64,000 bases of DNA from Bacillota bacterium (GTDB taxonomy: Bacteria > Bacillota > Sulfobacillia > JAJZIM01): contig JAJZIM010000012.1 in NCBI GenBank assembly GCA_021810565.1, forward strand, positions 325 through 64,324, written 5' to 3'. Shown piece by piece: positions 4,786-60,663 of this stretch. Numbering within the stretch: position 1 is the first letter of the stretch; each line of letters opens with the position of its first letter. The notes under the pieces were generated by a model. It did no database searches, was not told the origin of the DNA, and worked only from the letters and a program-made list of their open reading frames with translations. Position numbers and translations under genes: made by a program.

Positions 4786-4816
4786 TAATACATGCTCCAC
4801 CCGATCATATACATGG
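4786..4816 (+). promoter_or_regulatory. Candidate sporulation-sigma (sigmaE-like) promoter for spoIVA (AATACAT ... CATATACAT)
   Basis: A CATATACAT element about 55 nt upstream of the spoIVA start resembles the sigmaE -10 CATACA-T. This is a weak pattern match only. Confidence 0.2.
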
Positions 4817-4872
4817 TAGCGTCCCGCGGTAGAGGCCCCGCGGCTTCGGGGCGAGCAAAAGGAGGGACGCAG

Positions 4873-43452: not shown

Positions 43453-43527
43453 AGTTCTCTGGTTGCCTTCTGGAAGCAGGTGTGCTACATTTTCTTGATG
43501 GCACGCTGTGGAAGGGGGGTGGGAAGG

Positions 43528-44565
43528 ATGGACCGGCTGCGCCCGATCCGTCCGGAAGGCGCCGCGCGACCGCCCCGGGTGGCGGAGCTCACCCGAGGGC
43601 AGGACGAGGCGGATGCCGTTCCTGGCCCGGAGTGGCGGGCTGAACTGGCGCGGGTTCTGGTGCGCCGCGGGCTCGAGCCCGCGGACCTGGTGGAGCGGTG
43701 TTCGGAGGCCGCCGGCCTGTGGAGCGGCGAGGCTACGGCGCCGGTCGCGCTCCTGGGGCTGGTGGCGCGGATGCTGGGCGTTTGCGGCAAGGAGCGGCGG
43801 GCGCTGTTCGCCGCGGCGGGTCTGCCCACCCTGGGGATGGTGCTGGACCGCCACCTCACCCTGCGGTCCAGGACCAAGTCCTCCCTCAGCCGCCTGACGG
43901 GCCTCAGCCACCCCACGGTGAGCGCGATCATGAACGACCGGTGCTGGCCGCAGCGGCGCACCCTGGACGCCATCCTGCGGGCCTTGGACCTGGAGGGGGA
44001 ACAGCGCCGGCTGGCCTGCCGTCTGGCGGGTTGGGAGTGGTTCGCCGACGAGGACGCGTTGCCGGAGCGTGACCTGATCGAATGGGCCCACCTGGCCGCC
44101 CAGAACAACGCCCAACCGCTGCTCCTGGTGGATCGCCTGGGCTGTGTTCTGTCCTTCAACTGCGCCTTTCGGTCGGCCCTGAGTCTGCCGCCTGCGCTGG
44201 AGGAGCAGATTGTTCGGGACCGGCCCAACTACACCGTGTTCGATCTGTTCCTGCACCGCTTCTACCAGCGGCGCATCCGCAACCGGTCGGAGTTCGGGCG
44301 AAACCTGGCCGCCTGGTGGTTCTGCCTGGCGGAGCGCTACCACGACCACCCCCTGCGCTCCGTGGTGTGGGAGCGGTTGTGCCACCGTCCGGAATTTAGG
44401 CACCGCCGCGGGGCCGAAGTCCTGCCGCAACTGGAGCTCACCGTGGAGTCCGACGAGGGCGGGGCCACCGACTTCCTGGTGGTCTTCCTGCCTTTCTGCG
44501 GCAAGTACTCCTTGGGTTTTCTGGCCTTTTTCACCTCGCCCGGCCCCGGGGGCCTCCCGGCTTGA
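43528..44565 (+). CDS. MmyB-like transcriptional regulator (XRE-type HTH plus C-terminal ligand-binding domain)
   Basis: ATG after ggaaggggggtgggaagg. HTH at LSRLTGLSHPTVSAIMND. The C-terminal domain is shared with the next gene. Confidence 0.5.
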   Translation: MDRLRPIRPEGAARPPRVAELTRGQDEADAVPGPEWRAELARVLVRRGLEPADLVERCSEAAGLWSGEATAPVALLGLVARMLGVCGKERRALFAAAGLPTLGMVLDRHLTLRSRTKSSLSRLTGLSHPTVSAIMNDRCWPQRRTLDAILRALDLEGEQRRLACRLAGWEWFADEDALPERDLIEWAHLAAQNNAQPLLLVDRLGCVLSFNCAFRSALSLPPALEEQIVRDRPNYTVFDLFLHRFYQRRIRNRSEFGRNLAAWWFCLAERYHDHPLRSVVWERLCHRPEFRHRRGAEVLPQLELTVESDEGGATDFLVVFLPFCGKYSLGFLAFFTSPGPGGLPA

Positions 44566-45542
44566 GCCTTCCAGAGACGCTGCGCGCCGAACTGCGGCGC
44601 CGGCGGCTGTCCCCGTCCTCCCTGGCGGCGGCGACGGGCTGTACCCCTACGACCATGGCGCAGTACCTGGACGGCAGCGCGCACCCCGACCTTTACCGGC
44701 TGGCGCTCATGGCCAACGCCCTGCGGCTGCGCCGCAGCGAGCGGCGGGAGTTCTATCTGGCGGCGGGGGAGGCTACCTTCGGCCAAAGGTTGGACGAGCA
44801 CCTGCGTCGGGCGGGCTTCACCGCCGGGGCGCTGGCCGAGCGGATGCGGATGAGCGTGTCCACCTTGAATTCCCTGCGGGAGGACCGCAACGTGCCGCGC
44901 CGCTCCACCCTGGAGCAGTTGGTGGACGCCTTCGACCTGGGGGGCGAAGAGCGCAGCCGGCTGTATCACGCCGCTGGGATGATGCCGGAGGCGGTGCCCT
45001 CCGTGTCCACCCGCGAGACGGCGGTGGGGCTGGCCAACCGGATGCTGGGGACCTCGGCGTGCCCGGCCTACCTGGCCGACAGCTGGGGCTATGTCCAGGC
45101 GTGGAACCGCGCTTTTGGCCGTTTGTGGCACCCGGCGGCGCTGGAGGAGCGGCTGGCGGCGGGAGCGTGCACGGTTTTCGACCTTTATCTGCACCCGGCA
45201 TGCCGCCTGCCTCTGGCGGAGGCGCAGGTCCAGGTGCGCCGCCTGGCGGCCTTCTGGAACCTGCGCCGCGACAGCCTGGACCCGCGGCGGCGGGAGGTCC
45301 TGCTGGCCCGGCTGGCCCAAATCCCGGGCTTCATGGAGGCGGCGGCTGCCACTCCGGCCGGAGAGCCCGGACCCGGCTACACCCTGGAGCTGGACCATCC
45401 CCGCTGGGGACGGCTGCGGGTCCGGGTGGTCAGCTTGTGCTTTCCGGCGGCCAACGACTGGGACCTGATCACCTTTTTGGCGGCGGATGCGGCGGCGCGT
45501 CTCGCCTACCTGGAGGAGGGGATCTGCCTTAACGAGGGCTGA
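44562..45542 (+). CDS. MmyB-like transcriptional regulator, paralog, with two tandem HTH modules
   Basis: TTG start overlapping the upstream stop. Two HTH-like segments are followed by the paralogous C-terminal domain (WGY.QAWNRAF...FDLYLH). Confidence 0.5.
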   Translation: MSLPETLRAELRRRRLSPSSLAAATGCTPTTMAQYLDGSAHPDLYRLALMANALRLRRSERREFYLAAGEATFGQRLDEHLRRAGFTAGALAERMRMSVSTLNSLREDRNVPRRSTLEQLVDAFDLGGEERSRLYHAAGMMPEAVPSVSTRETAVGLANRMLGTSACPAYLADSWGYVQAWNRAFGRLWHPAALEERLAAGACTVFDLYLHPACRLPLAEAQVQVRRLAAFWNLRRDSLDPRRREVLLARLAQIPGFMEAAAATPAGEPGPGYTLELDHPRWGRLRVRVVSLCFPAANDWDLITFLAADAAARLAYLEEGICLNEG

Positions 45543-45561: not shown

Positions 45562-45592
45562 GGGCCCGCCACCCGGCGGGCCCTTTCCCTTT
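45562..45592. terminator. Bidirectional terminator hairpin between convergent genes
   Basis: GGGCCCGCC-accc-GGCGGGCCC followed by TTTCCCTTT. Confidence 0.5.
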
Positions 45593-45603: not shown

Positions 45604-46488
45604 TCAGTCCGCCGGAGGGATGTAGGTCACGGTGAAGGAACCGGAGGGGGTCACGGGACCCAGATCCACCTCGGGCACACCGCCGCCGCCGCTGCCGCCC
45701 TCGCCGGCACTCACCATGATCACGCCCAGATGGGTCCGGGCGCCGATGCTGGTGGTCGAGCCGTCCTCGCGCACCAGGGCGTGGGACACGGAGAGGGTGC
45801 CGAAGTCGGCCAGGGGCAGCACGCTCACGGTGGTAGGACCGCCGCCGCTGCCGGATTCGGGCGCGGTCACGGGCGAAGGATCGGCCACCAGCCACTCCGC
45901 CGAGGACTCGGAGGAGGAGTAGGTCACGGTGGTGGCAAAGTGCGCCCCGGTGGTGAGGTCCTTCAGGAAGATCTTCCAGGAGTCGGCCCCCACCATGGTG
46001 ATGGCGCCGTGGACCACGTCACCGGCGTGGACCGTCAGGGCGCTGATCTTGGTCTGGGCGGCCGGGGCCAGCTCGTACCAGGCGTAGTACACGGGGGCGG
46101 CGGTGGGGCCGGAGCCGCCGGAGCCGCCGGAGCCCAGGTCCTGCTCGGTGCCGAGGGCGATCAGGTCGGCGGTGTTGTAGCCGCCGATGCCGATGGCCGC
46201 CGCGGAGCCGGCGGTGCCGCCGCCGGAGCCGCCCTCCGGCGGCGAGACGACCTTGGGCACGGTCCAGGTGCCGCTGACGGCCGTGTTGCCGGGGCTGGTG
46301 ACCACGTAGCCGCCCCAGTTGATGCTCTCGTCCGCCAGGTTGGCGAAATGCTGGTTGGCCAGGACGCGCAGGGCGGTGGCCGCAGGCGGCGGTCCCCCCG
46401 CGGCCGCGGCCGGCAGCACCGAGGCCATGGCCAGCAAGGCGCCGGAGGCGGCGGCCACCAGGCCGCGCTTCCACAGGAGCTTGTGCAT
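45604..46488 (-). CDS. Secreted G1-family (eqolisin-like) glutamic peptidase
   Basis: Signal peptide MHKLLWKRGLVAAASGALLAMASVLPAAAAG. Family motifs SINWGGYVV, GTWTVP and SAEWLVADP (candidate catalytic Glu). Confidence 0.6.
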   Translation of the reverse strand: MHKLLWKRGLVAAASGALLAMASVLPAAAAGGPPPAATALRVLANQHFANLADESINWGGYVVTSPGNTAVSGTWTVPKVVSPPEGGSGGGTAGSAAAIGIGGYNTADLIALGTEQDLGSGGSGGSGPTAAPVYYAWYELAPAAQTKISALTVHAGDVVHGAITMVGADSWKIFLKDLTTGAHFATTVTYSSSESSAEWLVADPSPVTAPESGSGGGPTTVSVLPLADFGTLSVSHALVREDGSTTSIGARTHLGVIMVSAGEGGSGGGGVPEVDLGPVTPSGSFTVTYIPPAD

Positions 46489-46965: not shown

Positions 46966-48567
46966 ATGCGGCGGCAGGGCGGTCAGTCCCTGATTCTGTA
47001 TGCGATCCTGGGGGTGGTGATCTTCGCCTTCGTGGCCTTCGCGGTGGACGTGGGACGGCTGTACGCGGCGGGGAACCAGCTGTCGGAGACGGCCGGGGTG
47101 GCGTCCCTGGCGGGCTCGCAGAAGCTGAACTTGGCTCCCGGGACGGATCCTACGTGCGCCGGCCTGACCAGCCCGGGGTCCGGGGAGGACGCGGCGTGGC
47201 AGGCCGCCCTGAACACCCTCAAGGACAACGGCTACCAGCCCCCGGCAAAGGACTTCACCGCGCCGAAGCCTTGTTCGGTGGCAACCAATTTGCCCGCGAA
47301 CGTGACCAGCGCCATCGCGGTGGGGCCCTTCACCTTGAACAAGAATCCCGCCACCCAGACCACCATCTACCTCTATCTTCAGGACGGGACGATCACGCAG
47401 AATTTCCAGGTGGATCTGTCCGCCCCCTTCAGCTACACCTTCGCCCGGGTGGTGGGCTTGAGCGGCACCGTCCTGACCCGCAACGCGGATAACGGGAGTT
47501 ATGTGGGGCTTGGTCCTGATGTGTGCCAATTAGGCCAGTGCAATAACAATCCGCCCCCGCCCAAGAAGAGCCAGCCTCCCACGTGCAGCACCTGCGCGGT
47601 CACGCCGGTGGGCATCGACTACCAGATGATGCAGGGAATGCAGGGAATGCAGGGAATGATGGAGGCCATGGGTCAGGGACAGCAGGTCACCATGACCTTG
47701 GCCCCCGCGGCGGCGGGCAGCTACCAGGGTAGCCTCAGCTGGAGCGGCGCCAGCTCGAATCCCAACGTCAGCCCAAGTTCGGGCAGCGGCAACTGGTACC
47801 GGTTGAACCTGGCCACGGAAAGCAACCCGACGGATGCCAACGTCAACGCCTGGGAGGGGTATAGGGGCGGCAGGTACACCGGGAACGACGCCGCGATGCG
47901 CGGCATGATGGGCAACAACTACGGCGGCTCGAGCTGCTCGGTCAACACCTGCAACCCCATGGGCGGCATGGGCAACTCCCAGATGTGCAACGGCAACATG
48001 GGCGGCGGTGGCGGTGGCGGCGGCAACATGGGTGGCGGTGGCGGCGGCAGCATGGGTGGCGGTGGCGGCGGTGGTAGCGGTGGCGGCGGCACGGCTGGCA
48101 CCGGCACGTCCTCCGGTCAGCAGGGCAGCTACTCGACCTATTTCAACACCCTGTACGGCTACCCCGGCAACGTGCAGGTGGGAGACACCATGCAGGGGCA
48201 GCTCGCCAACGGCTACGGGTACATGGCCGGCATGATGGACAACCGCTACAACGTGGGCACCGTCACCGGGTGCAGCACCTGCGCCACCGACAACACGCCC
48301 GCCTACGTGCTGATGCCGGTGATGCAGGACATGGGCAACGGCACGCTGCAGGTCATGGGCTTGGCCTACGGGCAGTTGACCAGCGTGGGCAGCAACGGTG
48401 ACATGCACTTCAACATGCGGATGATGACCCACCAGAAGCGCTACAGCAGCCAGTGTCTGCAATACAACTACCAACCCGGACAGCAGATGCCGTCGGGGAT
48501 GAATAGCAACACGGGCGTGAGAAGCGCGCCTTTCCCCAGAAAGCCGGTGGCCTTCCAGGGTTCCTGA
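46966..48567 (+). CDS. TadE/TadG-like pseudopilin-type protein with a long Gly/Met/Asn/Gln-rich low-complexity C-terminal region
   Basis: The N-terminus MRRQGGQSLILYAILGVVIFAFVAFAVDVGR is the TadE-like (Flp pilus assembly) signature. The rest is low complexity (MQGMQGMQGMM, G-runs). Confidence 0.6.
   Translation: MRRQGGQSLILYAILGVVIFAFVAFAVDVGRLYAAGNQLSETAGVASLAGSQKLNLAPGTDPTCAGLTSPGSGEDAAWQAALNTLKDNGYQPPAKDFTAPKPCSVATNLPANVTSAIAVGPFTLNKNPATQTTIYLYLQDGTITQNFQVDLSAPFSYTFARVVGLSGTVLTRNADNGSYVGLGPDVCQLGQCNNNPPPPKKSQPPTCSTCAVTPVGIDYQMMQGMQGMQGMMEAMGQGQQVTMTLAPAAAGSYQGSLSWSGASSNPNVSPSSGSGNWYRLNLATESNPTDANVNAWEGYRGGRYTGNDAAMRGMMGNNYGGSSCSVNTCNPMGGMGNSQMCNGNMGGGGGGGGNMGGGGGGSMGGGGGGGSGGGGTAGTGTSSGQQGSYSTYFNTLYGYPGNVQVGDTMQGQLANGYGYMAGMMDNRYNVGTVTGCSTCATDNTPAYVLMPVMQDMGNGTLQVMGLAYGQLTSVGSNGDMHFNMRMMTHQKRYSSQCLQYNYQPGQQMPSGMNSNTGVRSAPFPRKPVAFQGS
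47632..47658 (+). repeat. Perfect tandem (CAGGGAATG)x3 inside the tadG-like gene, encoding QGMQGMQGM
   Basis: Direct reading. The 9-nt unit is in frame. Confidence 0.8.
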
Positions 48568-48827: not shown

Positions 48828-50108
48828 ATGAGTACGGTGGATGGCGGCAAGGCTTCATCGGGGCGCATAGGGGTCCTACTGGTCGACGGGGACGGGTCAT
48901 GGTGCAAGCACTTCCACGAACTGCTGTCGGCGGCAGGCGGCTGCCGCCTCGTGGGAGCGGTGGCCGATCCGGGGGCGGCGGGAGCGTTGGCCTTCCGGGA
49001 GCGGCCCGCCTTGGCCTTGGTGGACCTGGGCCTGCCTGAGGGGATGGAGGCGGCGGTGGAGATCATGCGCCGCTCCCCCCGCACCGCGGTCATCGCCACC
49101 TGCGCCGCCGAGGAGTGCCCGAAGCTGTACGACACCGTCCGTCAGGCGATGCGGGCGGGCTTGCGGGACCTGGTGCCCAAGCCCTTCACCCTGGCCGAGT
49201 TTGAGCGGGTGCTGCGCCGCCATGCGACGCCGTCCCCGGTCGTAGCCGTGCCCGACGCACCGAAGGCTGGCCACCTGATCTGCGTGTTCTCCACCAAGGG
49301 TGGGGTGGGCAAGACCACCCTGGCCGCCAACCTGGCCGTGGCCTTGGCGCGGCGGGACCGCCGTCGGGTGGCCCTGCTGGATCTGGACCTGGAGTGCGGC
49401 AACGCCGCCGCCCTGTTCGGGCGGCACAGCCCGCACGCCAGCATCGTGGACCTGTGCCGGCGGACCGAGGGCATCGGAGCGGAGGCGCTGAGCCAGACGG
49501 TGGAGCGTCTGGATTGTTCCGTGGACCTGCTGGCCGCGCCACCCGGACCGGAGCAGGCCGCCCTGGTGGTGGGGGAGGCGCGGTCCGAGCCGCGGGACTA
49601 CGTGGGGGAGATCCTGGCCAGCGCCCGCGTGGCCTATCCGTGGGTGCTGGTGGACACGGCCTGCACCTTCGGGGCGGCCACCTTGGCCGCCCTGGACGCC
49701 GCGGACACGGTGCTGCTCCTCACCACCCCGGACATGCTGGCCCTGCGCAACACCGCCCGGGGCCTGGACGTGCTGCTGCGAGACCTGGAGTTCCCGGAGG
49801 GCAAGGTGCAATTGGTGCTGAACCGGTGCAACTCGGCCGTGGGCATCACCCACGCCAACATCCAGCGCGGGCTGAACTTTCCGGTGAGCTTCTCCCTGCC
49901 CTCGGATGCGGTCACCGTCATAAGCGCGGCGAACACCGGGGTGCCCTTCATGCTGAAAGGCCTGGAGCGCAACCTGTTGACGCAGCGCGTTACGGAAATC
50001 GCGGCCCGGCTGGACGGCATACAAAGGGCCGACACCCCGCAGGCCGCTTCGCCGCTGCCGGCCCGTCGACGGAAGGCCTGGCGGGCGGAACCCTTCTTCC
50101 GGAGATGA
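48828..50108 (+). CDS. CpaE/TadZ-like protein: N-terminal receiver-like domain plus a MinD/ParA-type ATPase
   Basis: The ParA/MinD-type deviant Walker A motif FSTKGGVGKTTLAANLA follows a CheY-like fold segment (IGVLLVDGD...). Confidence 0.65.
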   Translation: MSTVDGGKASSGRIGVLLVDGDGSWCKHFHELLSAAGGCRLVGAVADPGAAGALAFRERPALALVDLGLPEGMEAAVEIMRRSPRTAVIATCAAEECPKLYDTVRQAMRAGLRDLVPKPFTLAEFERVLRRHATPSPVVAVPDAPKAGHLICVFSTKGGVGKTTLAANLAVALARRDRRRVALLDLDLECGNAAALFGRHSPHASIVDLCRRTEGIGAEALSQTVERLDCSVDLLAAPPGPEQAALVVGEARSEPRDYVGEILASARVAYPWVLVDTACTFGAATLAALDAADTVLLLTTPDMLALRNTARGLDVLLRDLEFPEGKVQLVLNRCNSAVGITHANIQRGLNFPVSFSLPSDAVTVISAANTGVPFMLKGLERNLLTQRVTEIAARLDGIQRADTPQAASPLPARRRKAWRAEPFFRR

Positions 50109-50249
50109 AGCGGCCCACGGGGCGTGGGATTGCCTGCGGGCATGCAGTCTTGCGAACACGTTTTCGGAAGGTTGTATAGTAGACATGGGGTAGACTTTTA
50201 CTTTATGATTGCTGGGAGAACCCAAGCGCAAAAGCAGAAAGGGGGGAAG

Positions 50250-50283: not shown

Positions 50284-53200
50284 ATGGGGAGCAGATGGTG
50301 GGGAAGGTGGCTGATCCTGTCCTTGGCGGCGACGTTCCTGACGATCTCCTCGGCCTCGGTCTTGGCCGCGCCGGGAAGTTCGCGCGTGGCCTTGGGCGGC
50401 GTGCGACCGTTGGCGGTGCGCCAGGGCCTGGCGACCCGGGTGGGGGCGGTCCCCGCCGACCAGTCCATAACCTTGGTGGTCGGCCTGAAGCTGGCCCATC
50501 CCAACGCCCTGCACAGCCTGTTGGCCGCGCAGCGGGCCTCCGGGGCCGGATTTGTGACCGCCCAGCAGTTCGCCGACCGCTTCGGACCCTCCGCCGGCGC
50601 CTACCAGGCGGTGGTCTCCTTCCTACGGGGGCAGGGTTTCCAGGCGAGCACTTCGCCCAACCGGTTGCTGGTGACCGCCAGGGGCACGGTGGCCCAGGCC
50701 GAGGCCGCCTTTGCCGTGGGCCTGGCCAGCTACCGCTACCAGGGCGGCGTGTACCGGGCTCCCACCGCGACGCCGCAGATCCCCGCCTCCCTGAGCGGGA
50801 TCATCCAGTCGGTGGCCGGCCTGGACAACTTCCCGGTGTTCAAGCCGCAGTTGTCCCGCCTGAACCTGCCGCTGGGTGCAGGCGTGGCCAATTCCGTCTA
50901 CTATGGGTCGGACGGCTATACGCCCTTGGGGATCCGCACGGCCTACAATGTGCCCTCGGGCGCGGGAGCCCCCACGGGTGCCGGACAAAGCGTGGACATC
51001 GTCATCTGGGACGCCGTCAGCCCGGCGGACGTGGCAGGCTTTGACGCCGCCTACGGGCTGCCGCCGGCGGTCATCAACCAGTACCCGGTGGCTGGCACCC
51101 CCGTGGTGAACTTCAGCGACGCCACCCCCGAGGCGGACATCGACGCCGAGTGGGCGCACTCCATCGCGCCGGGGGCCACCATCAACATCTACGAGGCGGC
51201 CAACTCCGGGCTCGCCCAACTGGAGGAGGCGCTGAACGAGGCGGTGGTGCAGCATGCCGCCAACGTCTTGAACATGAGTTGGGGGGCACCGGAGAACCTG
51301 ATACCCATCAGCATCTTGGGCAGCTACGACGCGGTCATGGCCCAAGGGGCGGCCGAGGGCATGACCTTGGTGGCCGCCGCCGGGGACAACGGCGCGTACA
51401 CCGACGGCACCAGCCTCAGCGTGTCCTATCCCGCCTCGGACCCCTACGTCTTGGCGGCGGGAGGCACCACGCTGCAGATCAACGCCGACGGCACCTACAA
51501 GTCCGAGGCCACCTGGAACGGGCTGGAGAACCCCGTCGCCTGCCCCGCCTTCAGAGCTCCCGCACCGCCGCCCACCTTCGGGTACTGCGGCGATCGGGCC
51601 CACCCGCCCTACTACGACGGCGGAGGCGGCGGCTTCAGCAGCGCCTTCTCCGCCCCCAGCTACCAGGCGGCCACGGTGGACAACTACGTCTATGACGGCC
51701 AGGACTACAACCCGAGCGACATGCGGGGCATGCCCGACGTCGCCCTGAACGCGGGGGCGGGCACCGCGGGCTACGTGAACGGCTCCCTCGGCGGCTACAT
51801 CGGCACCAGCCTGGCGGCTCCCACCTGGTCGGGGATCGTCGCTCTGGCCGACCAGGAGCGCGCCGCGGCCGGTCTGCCGCCCCTGGGCAACCTGATGCCC
51901 TTTCTGTACGAGACGACGCCATCCATTGGTCAGGCGGGGGCGTCGGCGGTGCCGACACCTCCCCTGCACGACGTGACCGTGGGCGACAACAACGCCCTGG
52001 CGGCCACCGGCCCCTACTACGCCGCCGCCGGTTGGGATCCGGCCACCGGCTGGGGCAGCCCGAACGTCGCCGTGCTTCTGAGCGATCTGGCCGGGGTTAC
52101 CCTGCCCGCCAGCATCACCCTGTCGCCCACGGCCCTGGTGCCCGACTACCCGGCGCTCACCACCGTCACGGTGCAGGGGGTGGACACCCACTTCGCCGCG
52201 GGCACCACCGTGGCGGTCACCCAGGCCGGGGTGGCCGTGACCGGGGCGGTATCCAACGTCTCCGTGGTCAGCCCGACCAAACTCACTTTCCAACTGGCGG
52301 GCGGACTGCCCCAGGCCTTCTACGACGTGGCGGTCTCGGACACCACCGACGGCACCCTCACGGCACCCCTGGAGATCGGCACCGAGAGCATGGCCATCAG
52401 TCCCACCCAGGTGGCGGTGGGATACGGGGCCACCGACATCGCCATCACCGGCGACAACACCGACTTCGTGAGCGGATCCCTCACCGCCCAGGTGGTGCAG
52501 GCCGCCAACCTGGAGCAGGTCACCCAGCCGGCGGCGGTCGCCGTCAGCGGGCCGACGGCCGCCAGTTATGCCCTGCCCTTGGGGCTGCCGGTCGGCTCCT
52601 ACGACATCGTGGCCTACGACGAGAACGACGGGGTGGCGCTGCTGGCACCCTTCCAGGTGGTGGGAGTGTCCGCCGTGAGCGTGGGTGCCTTCCCGGCCAG
52701 CGTGCCGGCCAACGGCACGGCGGCATCCACCATCACGGCCAAGGTGTATGGCGCCGGGGGGGCGCCCCTTGCCGGGGTGACGGTGGACTTCGCCACGACG
52801 CTTGGCACCTTGAGCGCGACGTCGGCGACGACTGACGCCCAGGGGCAGGCCCAGGTGAGCCTAACCTCCACGGCGGCGGGCACGGCCACGGTCACCGCCA
52901 CGGCCCAGGGGGTGTCGGGCACGGCCCAGGTGACGTTCACCCCGGTGGTTTCCCAGGTCAGCGTGACGGCCTCGCCTGCCAGCGTGCCGGCCAACGGCAC
53001 GGCGGCCTCCGGCATAACGGCGACGGTGACCGACGCGGCGGGGGCGCCGCTGTCCGGGGTGACGGTGGACTTCGCCACGACGCTTGGCACCTTGAGCGCG
53101 ACGTCGGCGACGACCAACGCCCAGGGGCAGGCCCAGGTGAGCCTAACCTCCACGGCGGCGGGCACGGCCACGGTCACCGCCACGGCCCAGGGGGTGTCGG

Positions 53201-54477
53201 GCACGGCCCAGGTAACGTTCACCCCGGTGGTGTCCCAGGTGAGCGTGACGGCCTCGCCAGCCAGCGTGCCGGCCAACGGCACGGCGGCCTCCGGCATAAC
53301 GGCCACGGTGACCGACGCGGCGGGGGCGCCGCTTGCCGGGGTGACGGTGGAGTTCACCACGACCCTCGGCACCTTGAGCGCGACGTCGGCGACGACCGAC
53401 GCCGAGGGTCAGGCCCAGGTGAGCCTAACCTCCACGGCGGCGGGCACGGCCACGGTCACCGCCACGGCCCAGGGGGTGTCGGGCACGGCCCAGGTAACGT
53501 TCACCCCGGTGGTTTCCCAGGTGAGCGTGGCGGCCTCGCCAGCCAGCGTGCCGGCCAACGGCACGGCGGCCTCCGGCATAACGGCCACGGTGACCGACGC
53601 GGCGGGGGCGCCGCTTGCCGGGGTGACGGTGGACTTCACCACGACGCTTGGCACCTTGAGCGCGACGTCGGCGACGACCGACGCCGAGGGGCAGGCCCAG
53701 GTGAGCCTAACCTCCACGGCGGCGGGCACGGCCACGGTCACCGCCACGGCGCAAGGGGTGTCTGGCACGGCCCAGGTGACGTTCACCTCCGCGGTGCAGA
53801 TCGCGCCCAACGTCAAGTACCAGGTGCTGCGGCGCAGCGAGAACTGGGCGGGACTGGTGGTGGACCATCCCGGGGACACCGGAGTGAGCGCCCAATGGAA
53901 GATCCCTGCGGCTCCGGCCACCTTGGGCAGCTACGTGGCCCAGGCGGTGGGCATCGGCGGCTTCCAGACCTCCGACCTGCTGGCCGTGGGCACCCAGGAG
54001 CAAGCGGTCCAGGGACAGGCATCCTACGTGGCCTTCTGGGAGACGGCTCCGGGCAACGAGGTCGCCATCGGATCGGTCCCGGTGCACCCGGGTGACCGGG
54101 TGGCGGCTTCCCTGCACGAGGTCAGCCCCGGCCAGTGGCAGATCACCCTACGGGATCTGACCAGCGGGCAAACCTTCACCCAGGTGGTCAGCTACGACTC
54201 CAGCCGCTCCTCGGCCGAGATCCTGTTGGCCGACCCGTCCCAGGGCGGGAGCATCCTGCCCCTGGGCGACTTCGGGCGGCTGGTGTTCAGCCACGGCCAA
54301 GTGACCCGCAACGGCTCGACCCTGCCCATCCTGCTGGCAGGTGCGCTGCCGGTGGAGATGGTCAATCCGGCTAGCAAGACCTTGGAGGTGCGGATAGTGC
54401 CGCTGATCGACCGCGGCGTGGGAGCCTTCGAGGCGGTGTATCTGGCGCCCGGGACTCCTGCGGCGGCGCAGCGCTGA
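50284..54477 (+). CDS. Giant secreted multi-domain protease: signal peptide, pro-kumamolisin activation domain, sedolisin (S53) catalytic domain, about 5 tandem Big_1 Ig-like domains, and a C-terminal G1 (eqolisin-like) domain
   Basis: Signal MGSRWWGRWLILSLAATFLTISSASVLA. S53-type SGTSLAAP serine motif. The C-terminal 230 aa are a clear paralog of the 45604..46488 product (SENWAGLVV, YVAFWETAP, SAEILLADP). Confidence 0.75.
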   Translation: MGSRWWGRWLILSLAATFLTISSASVLAAPGSSRVALGGVRPLAVRQGLATRVGAVPADQSITLVVGLKLAHPNALHSLLAAQRASGAGFVTAQQFADRFGPSAGAYQAVVSFLRGQGFQASTSPNRLLVTARGTVAQAEAAFAVGLASYRYQGGVYRAPTATPQIPASLSGIIQSVAGLDNFPVFKPQLSRLNLPLGAGVANSVYYGSDGYTPLGIRTAYNVPSGAGAPTGAGQSVDIVIWDAVSPADVAGFDAAYGLPPAVINQYPVAGTPVVNFSDATPEADIDAEWAHSIAPGATINIYEAANSGLAQLEEALNEAVVQHAANVLNMSWGAPENLIPISILGSYDAVMAQGAAEGMTLVAAAGDNGAYTDGTSLSVSYPASDPYVLAAGGTTLQINADGTYKSEATWNGLENPVACPAFRAPAPPPTFGYCGDRAHPPYYDGGGGGFSSAFSAPSYQAATVDNYVYDGQDYNPSDMRGMPDVALNAGAGTAGYVNGSLGGYIGTSLAAPTWSGIVALADQERAAAGLPPLGNLMPFLYETTPSIGQAGASAVPTPPLHDVTVGDNNALAATGPYYAAAGWDPATGWGSPNVAVLLSDLAGVTLPASITLSPTALVPDYPALTTVTVQGVDTHFAAGTTVAVTQAGVAVTGAVSNVSVVSPTKLTFQLAGGLPQAFYDVAVSDTTDGTLTAPLEIGTESMAISPTQVAVGYGATDIAITGDNTDFVSGSLTAQVVQAANLEQVTQPAAVAVSGPTAASYALPLGLPVGSYDIVAYDENDGVALLAPFQVVGVSAVSVGAFPASVPANGTAASTITAKVYGAGGAPLAGVTVDFATTLGTLSATSATTDAQGQAQVSLTSTAAGTATVTATAQGVSGTAQVTFTPVVSQVSVTASPASVPANGTAASGITATVTDAAGAPLSGVTVDFATTLGTLSATSATTNAQGQAQVSLTSTAAGTATVTATAQGVSGTAQVTFTPVVSQVSVTASPASVPANGTAASGITATVTDAAGAPLAGVTVEFTTTLGTLSATSATTDAEGQAQVSLTSTAAGTATVTATAQGVSGTAQVTFTPVVSQVSVAASPASVPANGTAASGITATVTDAAGAPLAGVTVDFTTTLGTLSATSATTDAEGQAQVSLTSTAAGTATVTATAQGVSGTAQVTFTSAVQIAPNVKYQVLRRSENWAGLVVDHPGDTGVSAQWKIPAAPATLGSYVAQAVGIGGFQTSDLLAVGTQEQAVQGQASYVAFWETAPGNEVAIGSVPVHPGDRVAASLHEVSPGQWQITLRDLTSGQTFTQVVSYDSSRSSAEILLADPSQGGSILPLGDFGRLVFSHGQVTRNGSTLPILLAGALPVEMVNPASKTLEVRIVPLIDRGVGAFEAVYLAPGTPAAAQR
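52654..53790 (+). repeat. Tandem array of 297-nt repeats (about 3.8 copies, above 95% identity at nucleotide level), each encoding one Big_1 domain of the giant protease
   Basis: Period 297 is seen between 52951, 53248 and 53545, with near-identical strings such as gtgagcctaacctccacggcggcgggcacggccacggtcaccgccacggcccagggggtgtcgggcacggcccaggt. Confidence 0.75.
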
Positions 54478-54511: not shown

Positions 54512-57121
54512 ATGCGGCTTAGATGGGGCGCGGGACGCGGGTTGTACCTCCTGTCGGCACTGTTGCTGGTGGCCGGGTGCAGCGCCTCGCCGCCCTCATC
54601 GGGTAGCTCCTTCTCCCGGGTTCCCTCTTCGGCCGCCAGCGGTTCCACGGTGGCCTCCCGGGTGTATGCCGATGTCTATGCTCCCATTCCTGGGTTGGCG
54701 GTAAGCGTGGGTTACGCGGATACCCTGCGCGCCAGCAATCCTCCAAATTTTCCGAATCCGTGGTATAATAGCCCGGGAGTGAACTTCATCGGCGCCGGTG
54801 GGCCTTGGGATGCGGGAGCGATTATGCTGCAAAACACCACCGCCACGCCCATCTCCGTCGCCAACGTGACGGTGACCCTGCCGGGTCCCCGGGGGGATAT
54901 AACCCCCGGCACGTCGGCCACGAGTTCCCTGTGGGGCTCCTTCACCATCCCTGCCGGTCAGGCGGCCATCTTGACGCAGACGGCGGGGGGCACCGGCAGC
55001 GCCGACAACTTCGACACCAGCGACCTGCCGCTGATTTCCACCTGCGGCCCGCCGGTAGCCTCCGACTTCTACCCGCCCCAGATCACCATCACCGCCGGCA
55101 GCGGAATGACCGCCACCTATGGGGACACGGGCCACGTCCTGGACACCGGAGGTTTCGACGGGGCCTGCGCCGGGGACGAGTCCCACCCGTGGACGCTCCT
55201 CACCACCGTGACGGCCTCGCCCTTCGACGCCGGGGGCCAGTGGTCGGTGACCGGCACGGTCACCTCCGGCCCGCAGGCGGGCTTGAGCGGAGGCGGCACC
55301 CTGGTCATCGATCAGGTGTACGGCGCCTCGCAGTTCACCGGGTCCTTCACCTTGCAGACCACGGCGGGGACGGTGTCCGGGAACATCGAGGACGGCACGG
55401 TCAGCGCTGATACCCTGCAGTTTCTGGCCGTGGCGGGCACGCTGCAGGACCAGGTGACGGTGGATTTGAGCACGGCGGGGGTTACCCAGATGGCGGGCAC
55501 CTGGCAGGACAGCCTGGGGAACCGGGGGACCATGGTGGCCACCCGCTCACTGCGGCTGAGCCTTGCCGCATCCACTGCCAGCGCCCAGGTGGAGCAGGCA
55601 GTGTACCTCACGGCGAAGCTGACGGATGCCGGAGGCTATCCCATCGGGGGACAGCCGGTGGACCTGCGGGTGATCTACGCTAGCGATGCGGGGGTAGGCC
55701 TCAGCGCGCAGACGCTGCTTACCGATGCCTCCGGTGAGGGAGTGTTCACGGTCACCAACGACCTCCCGGGAACGGTCACCCTCCAAGCCCTGTATCCAGG
55801 CCTTGCCGCCGCGACCACGGTCACCTGGTCCGGGGAGGTGGTGATCTCCCGGGTGCTACTCACCGCGTCACCGAGTTTTATCCCGGCCGACGGCCTCACC
55901 CCGGCCACCCTGACCGCCACGGTGTACGGGGGGAGCGGTCAGCCGTTGAAGGGGATTCCGGTGACCTTCACCTCCACCTTGGGGGTGCTGTCCAGCAGCC
56001 TGACCTCGGAGCAATTCACCAATGCAGCGGGGGAGGCCGGCGACGAACTGACCACCGGGCAGGTGGGGCAGGCGACGGTCACCGTGAGCGTGTACAACGG
56101 GCCCAGCCGGATCGTGCGCTTCGTGGCGGCCACGCCGGGGACCCTCCTGTCCGCCCAGGCCATCATCAACTGCGTGGGGCCGACCCAGTCATATTATGTC
56201 CCCCATACGTGGGGCAACCCTATCGGCTTCGGTCCCAACTCCATCGAGGCGTACAAGGTCGGCGCCGGGGACCTGCAGTTGTATTTCTCCGGCACCCGAC
56301 CGTTCATCGTCCTGGACTTCGGACGCCAAGCCCAAAACGCGGCGGGGCAATGGGAAGTGATATTGCCGAAGACCAAAAATTTGGCCCAGTCTCAGGCCTG
56401 GGTGGAGAAGGTGGCTGAGGCCTTCGTGGTGGGCTACGACAGCGCCGCCAACGCTGGCGGGAACGGCGCGGACTGGAGATGCACGGTGGTGGTGGGCACC
56501 AACAATAGCGACTACCCGTGGTCCGATACCGCGGGCGCCATCTCGCCGCTTTGGGCGCAGGCCGGGGCGGACTGGGCCGACATGGTCAATGCGATCCGCA
56601 CCCAGGTGGGGAAGATCCCGGGCAACGTGTGCAAGGTGGAGGGTGGCAGCGACATCGAGTCCTGGCTGGGGACACCGGGCTTCGGAAGCTGGGTGGCCAC
56701 CGGAGCCGCCACGGAGCAGTGGGTTAGCGCCTACAATTGGGCATTCAAAGGGAGCCTGATGGTGGACTACGGCAGCGATGGGTACGCCGAGGACTCCGGA
56801 GAGTGGACCACCACCCAGACGATGGCCGTGGCGGACGGATACGATTTGGTATCCCTGGATAGCTTCAACAGCCAGGGGCTGTGCAATTACTGCAAAGACG
56901 TTGCCCTGCCGGAGATCTATTATCCAGGTCAAGCATCGGAGTGGGTATACCTGTGTGAGCAATTCTACGAGCCGTTGTTAGGAGATTATCCCTATATATG
57001 GGGGGTGACATCAGAAAACGGCTGGGACGGCTCCTTGGCGTGGGGTAGGTCATGGCAGGCTCTGTATGACGACTTCAGCGAGGTGTGGCATCCGGTAGAT
57101 GGACGCATCACGATTATTTAG
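54512..57121 (+). CDS. Surface lipoprotein with Big_1 (invasin-like Ig) domains and a roughly 330-aa C-terminal domain of unknown function. This is the full-length member of the repeat family.
   Basis: Lipobox LLVAGCSAS. The middle 420 aa correspond to repeat segment A. Confidence 0.7.
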   Translation: MRLRWGAGRGLYLLSALLLVAGCSASPPSSGSSFSRVPSSAASGSTVASRVYADVYAPIPGLAVSVGYADTLRASNPPNFPNPWYNSPGVNFIGAGGPWDAGAIMLQNTTATPISVANVTVTLPGPRGDITPGTSATSSLWGSFTIPAGQAAILTQTAGGTGSADNFDTSDLPLISTCGPPVASDFYPPQITITAGSGMTATYGDTGHVLDTGGFDGACAGDESHPWTLLTTVTASPFDAGGQWSVTGTVTSGPQAGLSGGGTLVIDQVYGASQFTGSFTLQTTAGTVSGNIEDGTVSADTLQFLAVAGTLQDQVTVDLSTAGVTQMAGTWQDSLGNRGTMVATRSLRLSLAASTASAQVEQAVYLTAKLTDAGGYPIGGQPVDLRVIYASDAGVGLSAQTLLTDASGEGVFTVTNDLPGTVTLQALYPGLAAATTVTWSGEVVISRVLLTASPSFIPADGLTPATLTATVYGGSGQPLKGIPVTFTSTLGVLSSSLTSEQFTNAAGEAGDELTTGQVGQATVTVSVYNGPSRIVRFVAATPGTLLSAQAIINCVGPTQSYYVPHTWGNPIGFGPNSIEAYKVGAGDLQLYFSGTRPFIVLDFGRQAQNAAGQWEVILPKTKNLAQSQAWVEKVAEAFVVGYDSAANAGGNGADWRCTVVVGTNNSDYPWSDTAGAISPLWAQAGADWADMVNAIRTQVGKIPGNVCKVEGGSDIESWLGTPGFGSWVATGAATEQWVSAYNWAFKGSLMVDYGSDGYAEDSGEWTTTQTMAVADGYDLVSLDSFNSQGLCNYCKDVALPEIYYPGQASEWVYLCEQFYEPLLGDYPYIWGVTSENGWDGSLAWGRSWQALYDDFSEVWHPVDGRITII
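54863..56128 (+). repeat. Repeat segment A (1.27 kb), near-identical at nucleotide level to 62168..63434. Its first roughly 500 nt are also near-identical to 58046..58545.
   Basis: Long stretches are identical, for example ggcccgccggt.gcctccgacttctacccgccccagatcaccatcacc. The homology has sharp boundaries. Confidence 0.8.
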
Positions 57122-57208: not shown

Positions 57209-58039
57209 ATGCTGGCCGCTAAACATCTGATCCTGCTGGCGGCAGCAGTCGTTGTCGTGGCCGGCGGGACATGGAGGGTGGTCTCGTCGCTGAACGCTGG
57301 TCAGACGATCGGTGTCCAGGGAGGCTTCGTAACCAAGCTGCCATCTCTGAAGGGCAAGAGCCCGAAGGAGATAGAGGCGATAACGCAGAGGCTTTTGAAT
57401 GCCAACACAGCGCGGTATGTCCGCTACGCACACCTGCTAAGCAAGAAGTTTGTGGCTGAATATGGCATGCATCCAACGCCTCAGCAGGCACAATTGGCAT
57501 ACACGGCCTTTCATGCGCTGCGCGAGGAGTTGAACAAGGCCAACGAGGCGCTGAACCAGCAGATGATTGCTGCATTGCCTACTCCCAAGCCGATGACCCT
57601 CCAACAGGAGAAGGAGCAGTATGAGCGGAGGCTAAAGGCGGAACAAAAAGCAATCAAGGAGATGGAGATACCCGGACCGGCTTCCCCGCCAGGAGCGCCT
57701 CCTGGTTTTGTGAATATGATCGTTCGTGGAGGAGCTGGAAAAGACTCCAGTGAATGGAACTTAGGCTATAACCCAGCGACCAGTAACCAATTCACTGGTT
57801 ATTCAGGTCATGTCCGTGGGCATCCGCAAGAAGGAGTAATCTTCATTGTGGTGACAAGTGAAGTCCTCACGCCCCACAAATCCACACGGGGCGGGGCATG
57901 GATCGCCCCGCGTCCCATCGGAGGCATCGCCATCACCGCGGTGCATGGCAATGTGATCGACTTCGATAGTGACAGCGGCGTGACGGGCACCTTCAACATG
58001 GTCACCCACCAGTGGACCTTCAATCCAGCGCCCGGCTAG
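57209..58039 (+). CDS. Hypothetical membrane-anchored protein on a low-GC insert
   Basis: N-terminal TM segment (LILLAAAVVVVAGG). GC is around 50-55% against about 70% in the flanks. Confidence 0.4.
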   Translation: MLAAKHLILLAAAVVVVAGGTWRVVSSLNAGQTIGVQGGFVTKLPSLKGKSPKEIEAITQRLLNANTARYVRYAHLLSKKFVAEYGMHPTPQQAQLAYTAFHALREELNKANEALNQQMIAALPTPKPMTLQQEKEQYERRLKAEQKAIKEMEIPGPASPPGAPPGFVNMIVRGGAGKDSSEWNLGYNPATSNQFTGYSGHVRGHPQEGVIFIVVTSEVLTPHKSTRGGAWIAPRPIGGIAITAVHGNVIDFDSDSGVTGTFNMVTHQWTFNPAPG

Positions 58040-59361
58040 ACCGGAGCGGCCCGCCGGTGGCCTCCGACTTCTACCCGCCCCAGATCACCATCACCGCGGG
58101 TAGTGGAATGACCGCCACCTACGTGGACACGGGCCACGTCCTGGACACCGGAGGTTTCGACGGAGCCTGCGCCGGGGACGAGTCCCACCCGTGGACGCCC
58201 CTCACCACCGTGACGGCTTCGCCCTTCGACGCCGGGGGCCAGTGGTCGGTGACCGGCACGGTCACCTCCGGCCCGCAGGCGGGTTTGAGCGGGGGCGGCA
58301 CCCTGGTCATCGATCAGGTGTACGGCGCCTCGCAGTTCACCGGGTCCTTCACCTTCCAGACCACGGCGGGGACGGTGTCCGGGAACATCGAGGACGGCAC
58401 GGTCAGCGCTGATACCCTGCAGTTTCTGGCCGTGGCGGGCACGCTGCAGGACCAGGTCACGGTGGACCTGAGCACGGCGGGGGTGACCCAAATGGCGGGC
58501 ACCTGGCAGGACAGCCTGGGGAACCGGGGGACCATGGCGGCCAGCCGGGGGTTGGAGCTCACCATGAGTGCATCTCCCTCCAGTCCCACGGTTGGTCAGA
58601 CAGTGTATCTGACGGCAACCTTGAGCGATGCCGCCGGCTACCCAATAGGGGGGCAGCCGGTGAACTTCGGGGTCGTGTATGAGACCCGAAACGGGGTCAG
58701 CTTAAGCGAAGCCGCGGCGACCACCGGATCCACCGGCCAGGCCGTAGTGGCGGCAGGCGACGACTTGGGTGGCCAGGTCACGTTCCGGGCCTCCTATCCC
58801 GGTGCAATCGCTGAACTGACTGTCGACTGGAGCGGAACCGTAGCCGCGACTCGCGTGGTACTGTCGGCCACTCCAGGGGTGATCCCGAACAACGGCAGCA
58901 CGCCGGCCACCATCACGGCTACGGTGTACGGGCCGGATAACCGGTTGCTGGCCGGAGTGCCGGTAACCTTTAGCACCGACCTGGGGCAGCTCGCCAGCAC
59001 CCGGAGCATGTCCAGAGTGATCTTCACCGATGCCCAAGGGCAGGCGGCAGATCAGCTCACGGCAAGGGAGACGGGCACTGCCACGGTCACGGTGGCTGTG
59101 TACAATGCTCCGCCAACGACGATTGGCTTTGTAACCACGCAATCAACGCTGGGCGATGCATGCTTGGTGGAAGTGGAGCCAAGTTCACCAAGTCAAGGTT
59201 ATGATTTGGAACAGCTATATAATTACGATCCAGCCGATGGTGTCACATGGGTTACCGCCAATGCCACATGGGCATATGATTTGGGGAGTTGGGATGCTCG
59301 ACATAATTACTCGGGTGGTATTCTTATGATTGGTAGCCCTACGGCCTTTCTCGATGCGTAA
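58012..59361 (+). pseudogene. 5'-truncated mosaic paralog of the 54512 lipoprotein (copy B). The first roughly 165 codons are about 99% identical to copy A, and the remainder is about 50% identical.
   Basis: It begins in frame immediately after the TAG of the preceding gene, with no RBS or signal peptide. Homology to A starts at 58046. Confidence 0.5.
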
Positions 59362-59442: not shown

Positions 59443-60663
59443 ATGCACAACGATTATATCGCGGGACATGCTTCGGTGGTCAATGCCATGCCTCAGGTAT
59501 ATCTTTCCTTTAGCAATATCGCGTCAATAGGGGTACATTACTATGCTGGCCAGCTGGCCGGGGAATGGACCTATCCCGACGGTGCCTGGATCGACTTTGA
59601 GGGTAGCTATTCGACGGCGTCGCAGGCTTTGACTGAGTTGAGCGGCTGGGCCGAGAAGGCTCCCAAGGGGAGCACCATCATGGATGAGGGTTGGAGAGCG
59701 GAAGATTGGCCATATGGCGATTCAAGTAGTGGCATGATGGGCTACATCACGGAACTCGACAAGATCAACAAGGCGTCGGTGGGAGAGAACTACGACAAAT
59801 ATCCGTTGTACCCCCAGGACTACTATCTCAATATGTGCCAACCCCAAGAGTATCCTCTAGCGGATTGCAGTCCCAATAGCTCTCAACCCTTCATCGGGGG
59901 GTTCGTAGGGGGCATAACCGCAGCGCATTTCATTGGCCCCCACGGGAATCTTCACACCATTCATGAGGAGTGGAACAATTACCAATCGGAACCATATCCA
60001 TTTAACTACTTTGCAGCGATCGTCGTTTATCAGGCCTATTATACGGTTTCTAATTGGTCGGTGTCCGCGTCACGCGAGTCGTTGCCCACGGTAGCACCTG
60101 CAGGAGCCTCCCTACAGACGTTGCTGCAGAGCCTGAAGGTTCGGGAGCGGGCACGTGCCAAAGAAGCTTCGACATTTTTCAAGAAGATAGATGCTTTGAA
60201 CAGGAAATATCCTTTCTCCGGCCCTGTCATTCCTCCACCACAGATCCTCCCTCCGAAGCCGCCTTACTCACCATCCGAACCTCATCCTACCTCCTGCCGC
60301 ATGTTCACGGCGAAGGTCTTGGCCCAGGTTTTTCGCACGGCAGGGTTGAATCCCGCAACAGGTCCGCTCATTCTTACTGGTAAGTGTTGGCGCATCAACT
60401 CGGGGCTGGTGATGTCGGGTGCGATGACCGAGCAGGGCGGCATGCCGTTCCTGATGTTGGAGGACCAGGGCCGTCCCGAGCTCGTGAGCGATCCCATAAG
60501 GCAGGTGAACGGTCCGGTCTTGATACTGGGGATGAAGACCGGCTGGGTCGCGGTGGCGCAGGGTTACGGCTACGCGTTGTACGATCCATCCACCTATCAG
60601 TGGGCGGCCTCCGACAACACCCTGCAGCCGTTCAAAGGAGAAGTGACGCCGCCGCTCGGGTAA
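59443..60663 (+). CDS. Hypothetical protein, possibly the detached C-terminal part of the copy-B paralog. Low GC.
   Basis: Weak similarity to the C-terminal domain of the 54512 product (for example SGWAEKAPKG against QAWVEKVAEA). Confidence 0.35.
   Translation: MHNDYIAGHASVVNAMPQVYLSFSNIASIGVHYYAGQLAGEWTYPDGAWIDFEGSYSTASQALTELSGWAEKAPKGSTIMDEGWRAEDWPYGDSSSGMMGYITELDKINKASVGENYDKYPLYPQDYYLNMCQPQEYPLADCSPNSSQPFIGGFVGGITAAHFIGPHGNLHTIHEEWNNYQSEPYPFNYFAAIVVYQAYYTVSNWSVSASRESLPTVAPAGASLQTLLQSLKVRERARAKEASTFFKKIDALNRKYPFSGPVIPPPQILPPKPPYSPSEPHPTSCRMFTAKVLAQVFRTAGLNPATGPLILTGKCWRINSGLVMSGAMTEQGGMPFLMLEDQGRPELVSDPIRQVNGPVLILGMKTGWVAVAQGYGYALYDPSTYQWAASDNTLQPFKGEVTPPLG

Follow-up and report, generated by a model that had tools for sequence, protein, structure and literature searches.

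A putative secreted sedolisin from a Thermaerobacter-like bacterium ends in a G1-fold domain lacking the glutamic peptidase dyad

We analysed 64,000 nucleotides of a Bacillota bacterium (positions 325 to 64,324 of contig JAJZIM010000012.1, assembly GCA_021810565.1; hereafter the window) and focused on the gene at 50284..54477, which joins a sedolisin (family S53) head to a C-terminal domain with the fold of G1 glutamic peptidases, or eqolisins. According to a preliminary description, the G1 part appeared to have kept its catalytic Gln and Glu. Alignments to crystal structures and to hidden Markov models (HMMs) show that both are Ala, here and in a paralogue encoded nearby. Judged from sequence, the product combines a single protease with a conserved module that is protease-like but inactive, and is not a dual acid protease: it passes every sequence test for a sedolisin, and belongs to G1 by homology and fold without qualifying as a glutamic peptidase. 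We consider the architecture and the pseudo-peptidase status highly probable. The fuller statement, that this is a secreted modular sedolisin with a pseudo-G1 binding module, we put forward with moderate confidence.

The protein consists of a signal peptide, a prodomain, an S53 catalytic domain, a six-module stalk and a C-terminal G1-fold domain, encoded as follows.

50284..54477, + strand: whole coding sequence (sedolisin, beta-sandwich stalk and putative pseudo-G1 domain), a single open reading frame (ORF) of 1397 amino acids (aa) plus stop
50284..50367, + strand: predicted Sec signal peptide, aa 1-28, read from the sequence as MGSRWWGRWLILSLAATFLTISSASVLA followed by AP
50434..50832, + strand: pro-kumamolisin activation domain, aa 51-183
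50914..52101, + strand: S53 sedolisin catalytic domain, aa 211-606, from a phmmer search of the Protein Data Bank (PDB)
52102..52668, + strand: two beta-rich modules of about 95 aa, aa 607-795, with weak IPT/TIG similarity
52675..53787, + strand: four tandem Big_1 domains (bacterial immunoglobulin (Ig)-like group 1)
53839..54453, + strand: G1/eqolisin-fold domain without the catalytic dyad; the Pfam match covers aa 1186-1359 and the modelled fold extends to about aa 1390

The reading frame is uninterrupted from TTG at 50209 or ATG at 50284 to 54477 on the + strand (1422 codons from TTG, 1397 from ATG), with no stop or frameshift. GC content at third codon positions (GC3) is 0.91 across the entire 50284..54477 frame, typical of coding DNA; the window as a whole has about 68% GC. 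We favour the ATG as the start, because a good signal-peptide sequence begins there (basic N-terminus, hydrophobic core and small residues at -3/-1, as read from the sequence) and because a promoter-like site lies just upstream; if real, this site puts the transcript start past the TTG.

50180..50209, + strand: promoter-like site upstream of the sedolisin gene, TAGACA-18-TATGAT, 10/12 matches, a consensus match only

The protein is thus predicted to be secreted. An exact look-up of its sequence in databases returned no match.

Pfam assigns three families to the 1397-aa protein: Pro-kuma_activ at aa 51-183, Big_1 in four stretches (PF02369, E 1.6e-79) and Peptidase_A4 at aa 1186-1359. The Big_1 array has a Tandem Repeats Finder period of 282 bp in 3.9 copies, with 94% matches between units, corresponding to domains of about 94 aa. 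Five such domains had been counted in the preliminary description; four are found, preceded by the two beta-rich modules. For these modules (aa 607-795), Pfam at relaxed thresholds gave no family above its cut-off, the best being TIG (E 0.018, 15.4 bits against 20.9). The same description had seen S53 and G1/eqolisin-fold units on one polypeptide, and here it is supported by HMM matches, structure prediction and an independent orthologue. It had also raised two worries, a hidden frameshift and a G1 part that HMM searches might fail to support; the frame is continuous with uniform GC3, and Peptidase_A4 (PF01828) matches the C-terminal domain at E 3.6e-24, with 85.8 bits against a cut-off of 22.3.

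The N-terminal half closely follows kumamolisin and sedolisin (S53; 1T1E, 1GT9, 1GA1). A phmmer search of the PDB places pro-kumamolisin 1T1E first (E 3e-40); kumamolisin-As, TPP1 and sedolisin come next, with E values down to 4e-19. The prodomain aligns with that of 1T1E and matches PF09286 at E 3.2e-25 (89.5 bits, the cut-off being 23.5), bearing out the pro-kumamolisin activation domain that had been proposed for this half. The E-x3-D, AAAGD and GTS motifs supply the following residues.

51130-51132, + strand: catalytic Glu283, EADID opposite kumamolisin E-x3-D
51142-51144, + strand: catalytic Asp287, in the same EADID motif opposite E-x3-D
51385-51387, + strand: oxyanion Asp368, AAAGDNG opposite kumamolisin AAAGDSG
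51808-51810, + strand: catalytic Ser509, IGTSLAAP opposite kumamolisin GGT(S/A)

The serine motif had been given as SGTSLAAP; it reads IGTSLAAP. In kumamolisin the serine position is Ala in 1T1E (GGTAAVAP) and Ser in 1T1G, and we take the matching kumamolisin residues to be those numbered Glu78, Asp82, Asp164 and Ser278. Both calcium-site aspartates, Asp563 (HD) and Asp585 (GWDP), which lie towards the C-terminal end of the catalytic domain, fall opposite the corresponding HD and GWDP motifs in kumamolisin. Prodomain, Ser-Glu-Asp triad, oxyanion Asp and calcium-site Asp together make up every feature by which S53 membership is defined in sequence. The sedolisin unit is accordingly predicted to be active, with its prodomain removed autocatalytically as is characteristic of S53 peptidases, and Ser509/Glu283/Asp287 would most likely be the sole catalytic centre of the protein.

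Unlike kumamolisin and sedolisin, the protein carries about 790 extra C-terminal residues and an insertion of about 30 residues, containing Cys, near aa 414-445; its host, moreover, is probably a neutrophilic thermophile and not an acidophile. The best 120 S53 homologues are at most 37% identical, save some short prodomain-less matches at about 41%, and a scan of species-representative genomes returned S53 relatives only, at 25-36% identity and none of them belonging to the source lineage. C-terminal Ig-like tails are common among these 120 homologues (PF16640, PF17963, PF02369, fn3, PKD), and one of them, P0166, also has Big_1. The protein thus resembles modular bacterial sedolisins built of a head and a beta-sandwich tail, but none of the 120 ends in Peptidase_A4 (PF01828).

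The family and fold of the C-terminal domain are secure. An AlphaFold2 model of the last 235 residues has a mean predicted local distance difference test score (pLDDT) of 90.6 and a predicted template modelling score (pTM) of 0.87. Foldseek places it first on scytalidoglutamic peptidase (SGP; 2IFW, E 7e-15, template modelling score (TM) 0.86, root-mean-square deviation 2.3 A) and then on aspergilloglutamic peptidase (AGP). G1 enzymes have a 'half-pipe' beta-sandwich fold of two sheets. This fold is likened to that of concanavalin-A-like lectins, and their cleft is suited to an extended peptide (PMC6154417).

In G1 enzymes, one Gln and one Glu form the catalytic dyad, as established by mutagenesis of the fungal enzymes and by crystallography, and MEROPS files homologues without the dyad as non-peptidase homologues (PMC3009609, PMC6154417). 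We assigned residue equivalences from phmmer alignments to 1Y43_B and 1S2B, together with HMM and MAFFT alignments. Pairwise alignments to both crystallised G1 enzymes place Ala opposite AGP Gln24 and Glu110 and opposite SGP Gln53.

53944-53946, + strand: Ala1221 at the SGP Trp39 position, from HMM/MAFFT alignments
53983-53985, + strand: Ala1234 (GCC) at the position of SGP Gln53 and AGP heavy-chain Gln24, LLAVGT opposite ILQTG
54229-54231, + strand: Ala1316 (GCC) at the position of SGP Glu136 and AGP heavy-chain Glu110, SAEILLADP opposite NAEWIVEDF

The assignment of Ala1316 to SGP Glu136 follows from the match of the SAE motif. Counting the printed residues shows that the catalytic Glu is that of IVED in AGP (Glu110) and of IIED in SGP (Glu136). 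The Glu of the SAE motif is SGP Glu132, and the catalytic Glu136 sits four residues further on. The fused domain keeps Glu132 as Glu1312 and SGP Glu69 as Glu1253. With Ala at both dyad positions and also in place of the invariant Trp, the domain qualifies, by the MEROPS criterion applied to its sequence, as a non-peptidase homologue, a putative pseudo-peptidase. It is predicted to lack the pepstatin-insensitive acid endopeptidase activity of G1 enzymes.

The Ala/Ala state is rare. Our G1 homologue set was the best 150 of 3725 representatives. The dyad is Gln/Glu in 160 of 165 G1 domain segments in the HMM alignment, and in 273 of the 285 segments from two independent searches. Six of the non-Gln/Glu segments among the 285 are halves of three split proteins and cover one column each. 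Every segment covering the Gln column has Gln, bar one Arg and the four Ala of this lineage, and Ala/Ala is limited to the two domains of the window and their orthologues P0012 and P0282 (about 94% identical). Rare other departures are the Arg at the Gln position of P0148 and a Ser at the Glu position in the first G1 domain of P0086. Five further G1 relatives, retrieved in a metagenome scan with the Ala/Ala alignment, are distant and all Gln/Glu. We considered two ways in which the loss might be only apparent. Sequencing error was rejected, because at least two bases must differ to turn Gln into Ala and because separately assembled genomes show the same state. A Gln or Glu shortly past the lost Gln (GTQEQ / GTEQD) might have compensated for it; this too was rejected, active homologues having identical residues there.

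Could the G1 part nevertheless cut, making the protein a bifunctional double protease that uses non-canonical residues such as Glu1253 and Glu1312? The fold and most cleft motifs are conserved, these two Glu lie near the cleft and the domain is under purifying selection. Neprosin, a glutamic peptidase, is among the weaker structural matches of both the fused and the stand-alone models, and neprosin-type glutamic peptidases have a Glu-Glu dyad, a loose parallel for Glu1253/Glu1312. We know of no G1 enzyme that works without the Gln/Glu dyad. Both residues that mutagenesis proved to be required are Ala here (PMC3009609, PMC6154417), and Glu69 and Glu132 are also conserved, in non-catalytic capacity, in active G1 enzymes, where SGP Glu69 helps to position Gln53 (PMC6154417). 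We regard a second, non-canonical protease as highly improbable.

The same substitutions are found in a second gene of the window.

45604..46488, - strand: stand-alone paralogue of 294 aa, predicted to be secreted, whose active site is dead in the same way (PF01828, E 1e-26, 94.1 bits)
46195-46197, - strand: Ala98 at the Trp39 position, from the alignment
46156-46158, - strand: Ala111 at the Gln53 position (LIALGT), from the alignment
45883-45885, - strand: Ala202 at the Glu136 position (SAEWLVADP), from the alignment
45562..45583, - strand: intrinsic-terminator-like hairpin of 9 G-C pairs and a T run, directly after the stand-alone gene

The stand-alone and fused domains are 37% identical (E 6e-38) and both match Peptidase_A4, in agreement with the paralogy noted in the preliminary description; the shared motifs listed there (NWAG/NWGG, AFWETAP/YAWYELAP and SAEILLADP/SAEWLVADP) are all present. 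The stand-alone model has a pLDDT of 87.2, and its top Foldseek match is again 2IFW (E 4e-13, TM 0.85). G1 enzymes are made as prepro-enzymes with an N-terminal prosegment of about 40-55 aa. Here about 20 residues separate the last Big_1 domain from the fused G1 domain, which would seem too few for such a segment, and about 25 separate the signal peptide of the stand-alone protein from its fold. An orthologue on an ENA metagenome contig (P0282 on L009) is 94% identical to the stand-alone copy and likewise Ala/Ala. The stand-alone copy also has four Gly/Ser-rich insertions (GGSGGG, GSGGSGGSG, GSGGG, GGSGGGG) in loops of low pLDDT, whose lengths differ in P0282. Two tandem helix-turn-helix regulators (43480-45542, + strand) are convergent with the stand-alone gene, with the hairpin lying between; the second has an MmyB-like ligand-binding domain, and the arrangement is kept at L009 2036-4050.

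An exhaustive search of representatives recovered an orthologue of the whole protein that a word-indexed protein search had missed: P0012, which is GenBank MDA8145520.1, a 1295-aa product named 'G1 family endopeptidase, partial' from a metagenome-assembled genome (MAG) of Thermaerobacter sp. It has the order Pro-kuma_activ, Big_1, Peptidase_A4 and is 94% identical over the C-terminal domain. Its contig (L008) is colinear with the window across both domain junctions at 93% DNA identity, which excludes an assembly or frameshift artefact private to our sequence. The orthologue has three Big_1 units against four (three Pfam stretches; a 94-aa gap at alignment columns 992-1086). Bases 1-128 of L008 do not align with window 50284-50434, giving an unrelated N-terminus in place of the signal peptide, probably a contig-end artefact of the MAG. 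That misassembly or a missed frameshift joined two separate genes is therefore barely conceivable: four Big_1 units 94% identical in DNA are prone to joining or collapse by an assembler, and the orthologue does have three; against this, the frame is continuous, GC3 is uniform and the independent MAG contig has the same order, differing only in repeat number.

Among the listed G1 homologues (best 150 of 3725), only P0012 also has Pro-kuma_activ, and within the searches made the S53 and G1 combination looks restricted to this lineage. Literature searches on the S53-G1 combination, on bacterial PF01828 and on proteases of Thermaerobacter turned up no relevant paper. Judged by the 93-94% identical orthologues, from a Thermaerobacter sp. 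MAG and an ENA metagenome, the host is probably a Thermaerobacter-like, spore-forming Bacillota and a neutrophilic thermophile. The SpoIVA gene of the window is in keeping with a spore-former of this kind. The thermoacidophile setting invoked in the preliminary description is a poor fit, as the closest relative is Thermaerobacter, whose type species grows optimally at pH 7.0-7.5 (PMC3035304). Speculatively, a mechanism confined to acid conditions would bring no benefit at neutral pH, which could account for the loss of the dyad.

We then asked how far the dead domains depart from the family. We took as hallmarks the 42 columns with a conservation of at least 85% across 111 other homologues; 33 of these are kept in the fused domain and 36 in the free copy. 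Losses common to both are Trp39 (of WVGI(D/G)G), Gln53, Glu136 and the Leu of ExLP, all replaced by Ala; the Trp39, Gln53 and Glu136 columns are 100% invariant in the other homologues. By the hairpin register of the model, the Trp and Gln positions would both face one side of the sheet. The dead domains keep the four conserved Gly, Glu69, Pro72 and the SSAE motif, all of which except SSAE have been discussed as required for cleft geometry (PMC6154417). In these features, in PF01828 membership and in fold (TM 0.85-0.88) they are like G1 enzymes (2IFW, 1Y43, bacterial pepG1), unlike which they have Ala for Gln53, Glu136 and the invariant Trp39; the fused copy also has Phe at Trp67. The pattern points to specific remodelling of the G1-fold scaffold rather than to its decay.

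Comparison with the orthologues gave dN/dS (non-synonymous to synonymous rate) values of 0.28 for the fused G1 domain, 0.34 for the S53 catalytic domain, 0.22 for the two beta-rich modules, 0.27 overall and 0.12 for the free paralogue; these come from a single close pair per gene at dS of about 0.13-0.16, and rest on roughly 18 and 12 non-synonymous changes, so they are coarse. The values do not suggest drift but purifying selection on both dead domains. They bear on the idea that the G1 domain is an evolutionary relic that lost catalysis and now drifts without function. The catalytic residues have indeed gone, and a host that grew at neutral pH, as the type species of Thermaerobacter does (PMC3035304), would gain little from a mechanism that works only in acid. 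Yet dN/dS in the dead domains (0.28 and 0.12) is not above that of the S53 catalytic domain, 33-36 of 42 hallmarks are kept, the models are confident and fully folded, and two paralogues are in the same state in at least two genomes with no frameshifts or stops. A relic is thus very unlikely.

A neighbour-joining tree places the free copy in one group with the fused domain and the orthologue of the latter (bootstrap 54/100). This grouping and the four shared Ala substitutions favour a single ancestral loss of the dyad, followed by duplication or fusion.

What might a dead protease domain do at the end of a live protease? We propose that the sedolisin head acts as the protease and that the six beta-sandwich modules, two unassigned and four Big_1, serve as a stalk, with the terminal G1-fold domain, once an enzyme, now binding a ligand without catalysis. 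The ligand would sit uncut in the half-pipe peptide-binding cleft of this domain. Candidates are a protein substrate that is handed to the sedolisin head, or a cell-surface component or polymer that tethers the enzyme; the free paralogue at 45604..46488, also predicted to be secreted, may independently bind ligands of this class. The proposal draws on four cleft-region residues reduced to Ala, a conserved scaffold and purifying selection; for the binding role of the dead domain itself we see the chances as evenly balanced.

Other multidomain bacterial G1 proteins provide a context. P0102 combines G1 with three CWB2, P0131 with YkuD and P0151 with a beta-helix; P0150 has a TcaA-like part and a sub-threshold NAGidase-like match together with G1, and P0014 and P0086 have tandem G1 domains. 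These proteins mostly keep Gln/Glu (the first domain of P0086 does not), and none is joined to S53. They show that, in bacteria, the G1 domain occurs as a mobile module in secreted or cell-envelope proteins. The fusions to CWB2, YkuD and the sub-threshold NAGidase-like part, together with the surface-gene cluster and the Tad-pilus neighbours described below, are consistent with a cell-envelope setting for the sedolisin.

A different role is suggested by the CspBA and CspC proteins of Clostridioides difficile, where a live serine protease and a dead protease-fold domain form one protein and a dead paralogue is encoded separately (PMC7200643). By this analogy, the dead domain and its free counterpart would act on the activity, maturation or stability of the attached sedolisin, either controlling these or sensing conditions for them, instead of binding substrate or surface. 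There is precedent in Bacillota, CspBA being an active protease fused to a pseudo-protease and free CspC a regulator (PMC7200643), and the same three-part pattern of active unit, fused dead unit and free dead paralogue recurs here; the free copy also adjoins two MmyB-like regulators, both in the window and in L009. The Csp units, however, are all S8 subtilases that act in spore germination. In CspBA, the live and dead units are adjacent members of one family; here the folds are unrelated, about 570 residues of stalk lie between them, the dead unit is G1 and there is a secretion signal, so that the likeness is one of analogy only, with no homology. A long Ig-like stalk also suits reaching and binding better than intramolecular control. 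We regard regulation of this kind as unlikely.

Several points weigh against our preferred reading of a secreted sedolisin with a pseudo-G1 binding module. Sedolisins are typically acid-active and the nearest genus is neutrophilic, so that S53 activity under physiological conditions is an assumption. Any binding partner of the dead domain is hypothetical. That the three Ala positions line one pocket is a supposition. Glu1253 (SGP Glu69) and Glu1312 (SGP Glu132) lie near the cleft, and non-canonical chemistry there may, formally, occur. The neighbour-joining support for one origin of the dead state is just 54%, and other Ala/Ala or S53-fused members may exist beyond the best 150 of 3725. The dN/dS estimates carry the coarseness given above.

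The sedolisin gene adjoins Tad-pilus genes and heads a same-strand cluster of genes for lipoprotein, Big_1 and NHL surface proteins, beginning 35 bp downstream.

54512..57121, + strand: lipoprotein gene (LLVAGC lipobox) with two Big_1 domains and a C-terminal region of about 330 aa

Pfam found no match in this C-terminal region, and none in the ORFs at 57209-58039 and 59443-60663. Further downstream on the + strand lie 58012-59361 (two Big_1), 60716-62143 (NHL/beta-propeller) and 62147-63505 (two Big_1). The last 138 bases of L008 (4280-4417) match the window twice, at 54868-55005 (colinear) and at 62173-62310 (97% identity), which indicates that segments in the N-terminal regions of genes 54512 and 62147 are paralogous. 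Between 56 and 62 kb, GC drops to 0.56-0.60 from about 0.68-0.72 in the flanking DNA; the low-GC DNA may have been acquired. Directly upstream of the sedolisin gene is a CpaE-like protein with a receiver domain and a ParA-type ATPase (48828-50108, + strand), preceded by a TadG-like protein (46966-48567, + strand) with long Gly/Met-rich low-complexity tracts, for example GGGGGGGNMGGGGGGSMGGGGGGG. The remainder of the window (4789-6351, + strand, and elsewhere) includes the housekeeping genes of a spore-former, for SpoIVA, cytochrome b, homoserine dehydrogenase, aspartokinase, CorA, a molybdopterin oxidoreductase, MoeA, S-adenosylhomocysteine (AdoHcy) hydrolase and a GGDEF-HD protein.

The finding neither opens nor settles a long-standing question. 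Its immediate use is in annotation: the automatic name 'G1 family endopeptidase' on the public orthologue is misleading, the intact catalytic unit being the unnamed sedolisin, and it would lead astray any search of thermophile genomes for acid or thermostable proteases. It also offers a clean case of a protease fold that is under selection after its chemistry was lost, in two paralogues, one of them welded to an unrelated live protease. More tentatively, and with the balance somewhat against it, the Ala-lined G1-fold domains could be founders of a family of non-catalytic capture modules, derived from glutamic peptidases, that direct a sedolisin towards either its substrate or the cell surface, the captured ligand being a peptide or a glycan. 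If so, this would be, to our knowledge, the first bacterial G1 pseudo-enzyme with an assigned role and the first protease to use the dead scaffold of an unrelated protease family for binding. A true binding device would give protein engineering a new module, a thermostable peptide-binding half-pipe, and would provide a bacterial entry point to the study of pseudo-peptidases.

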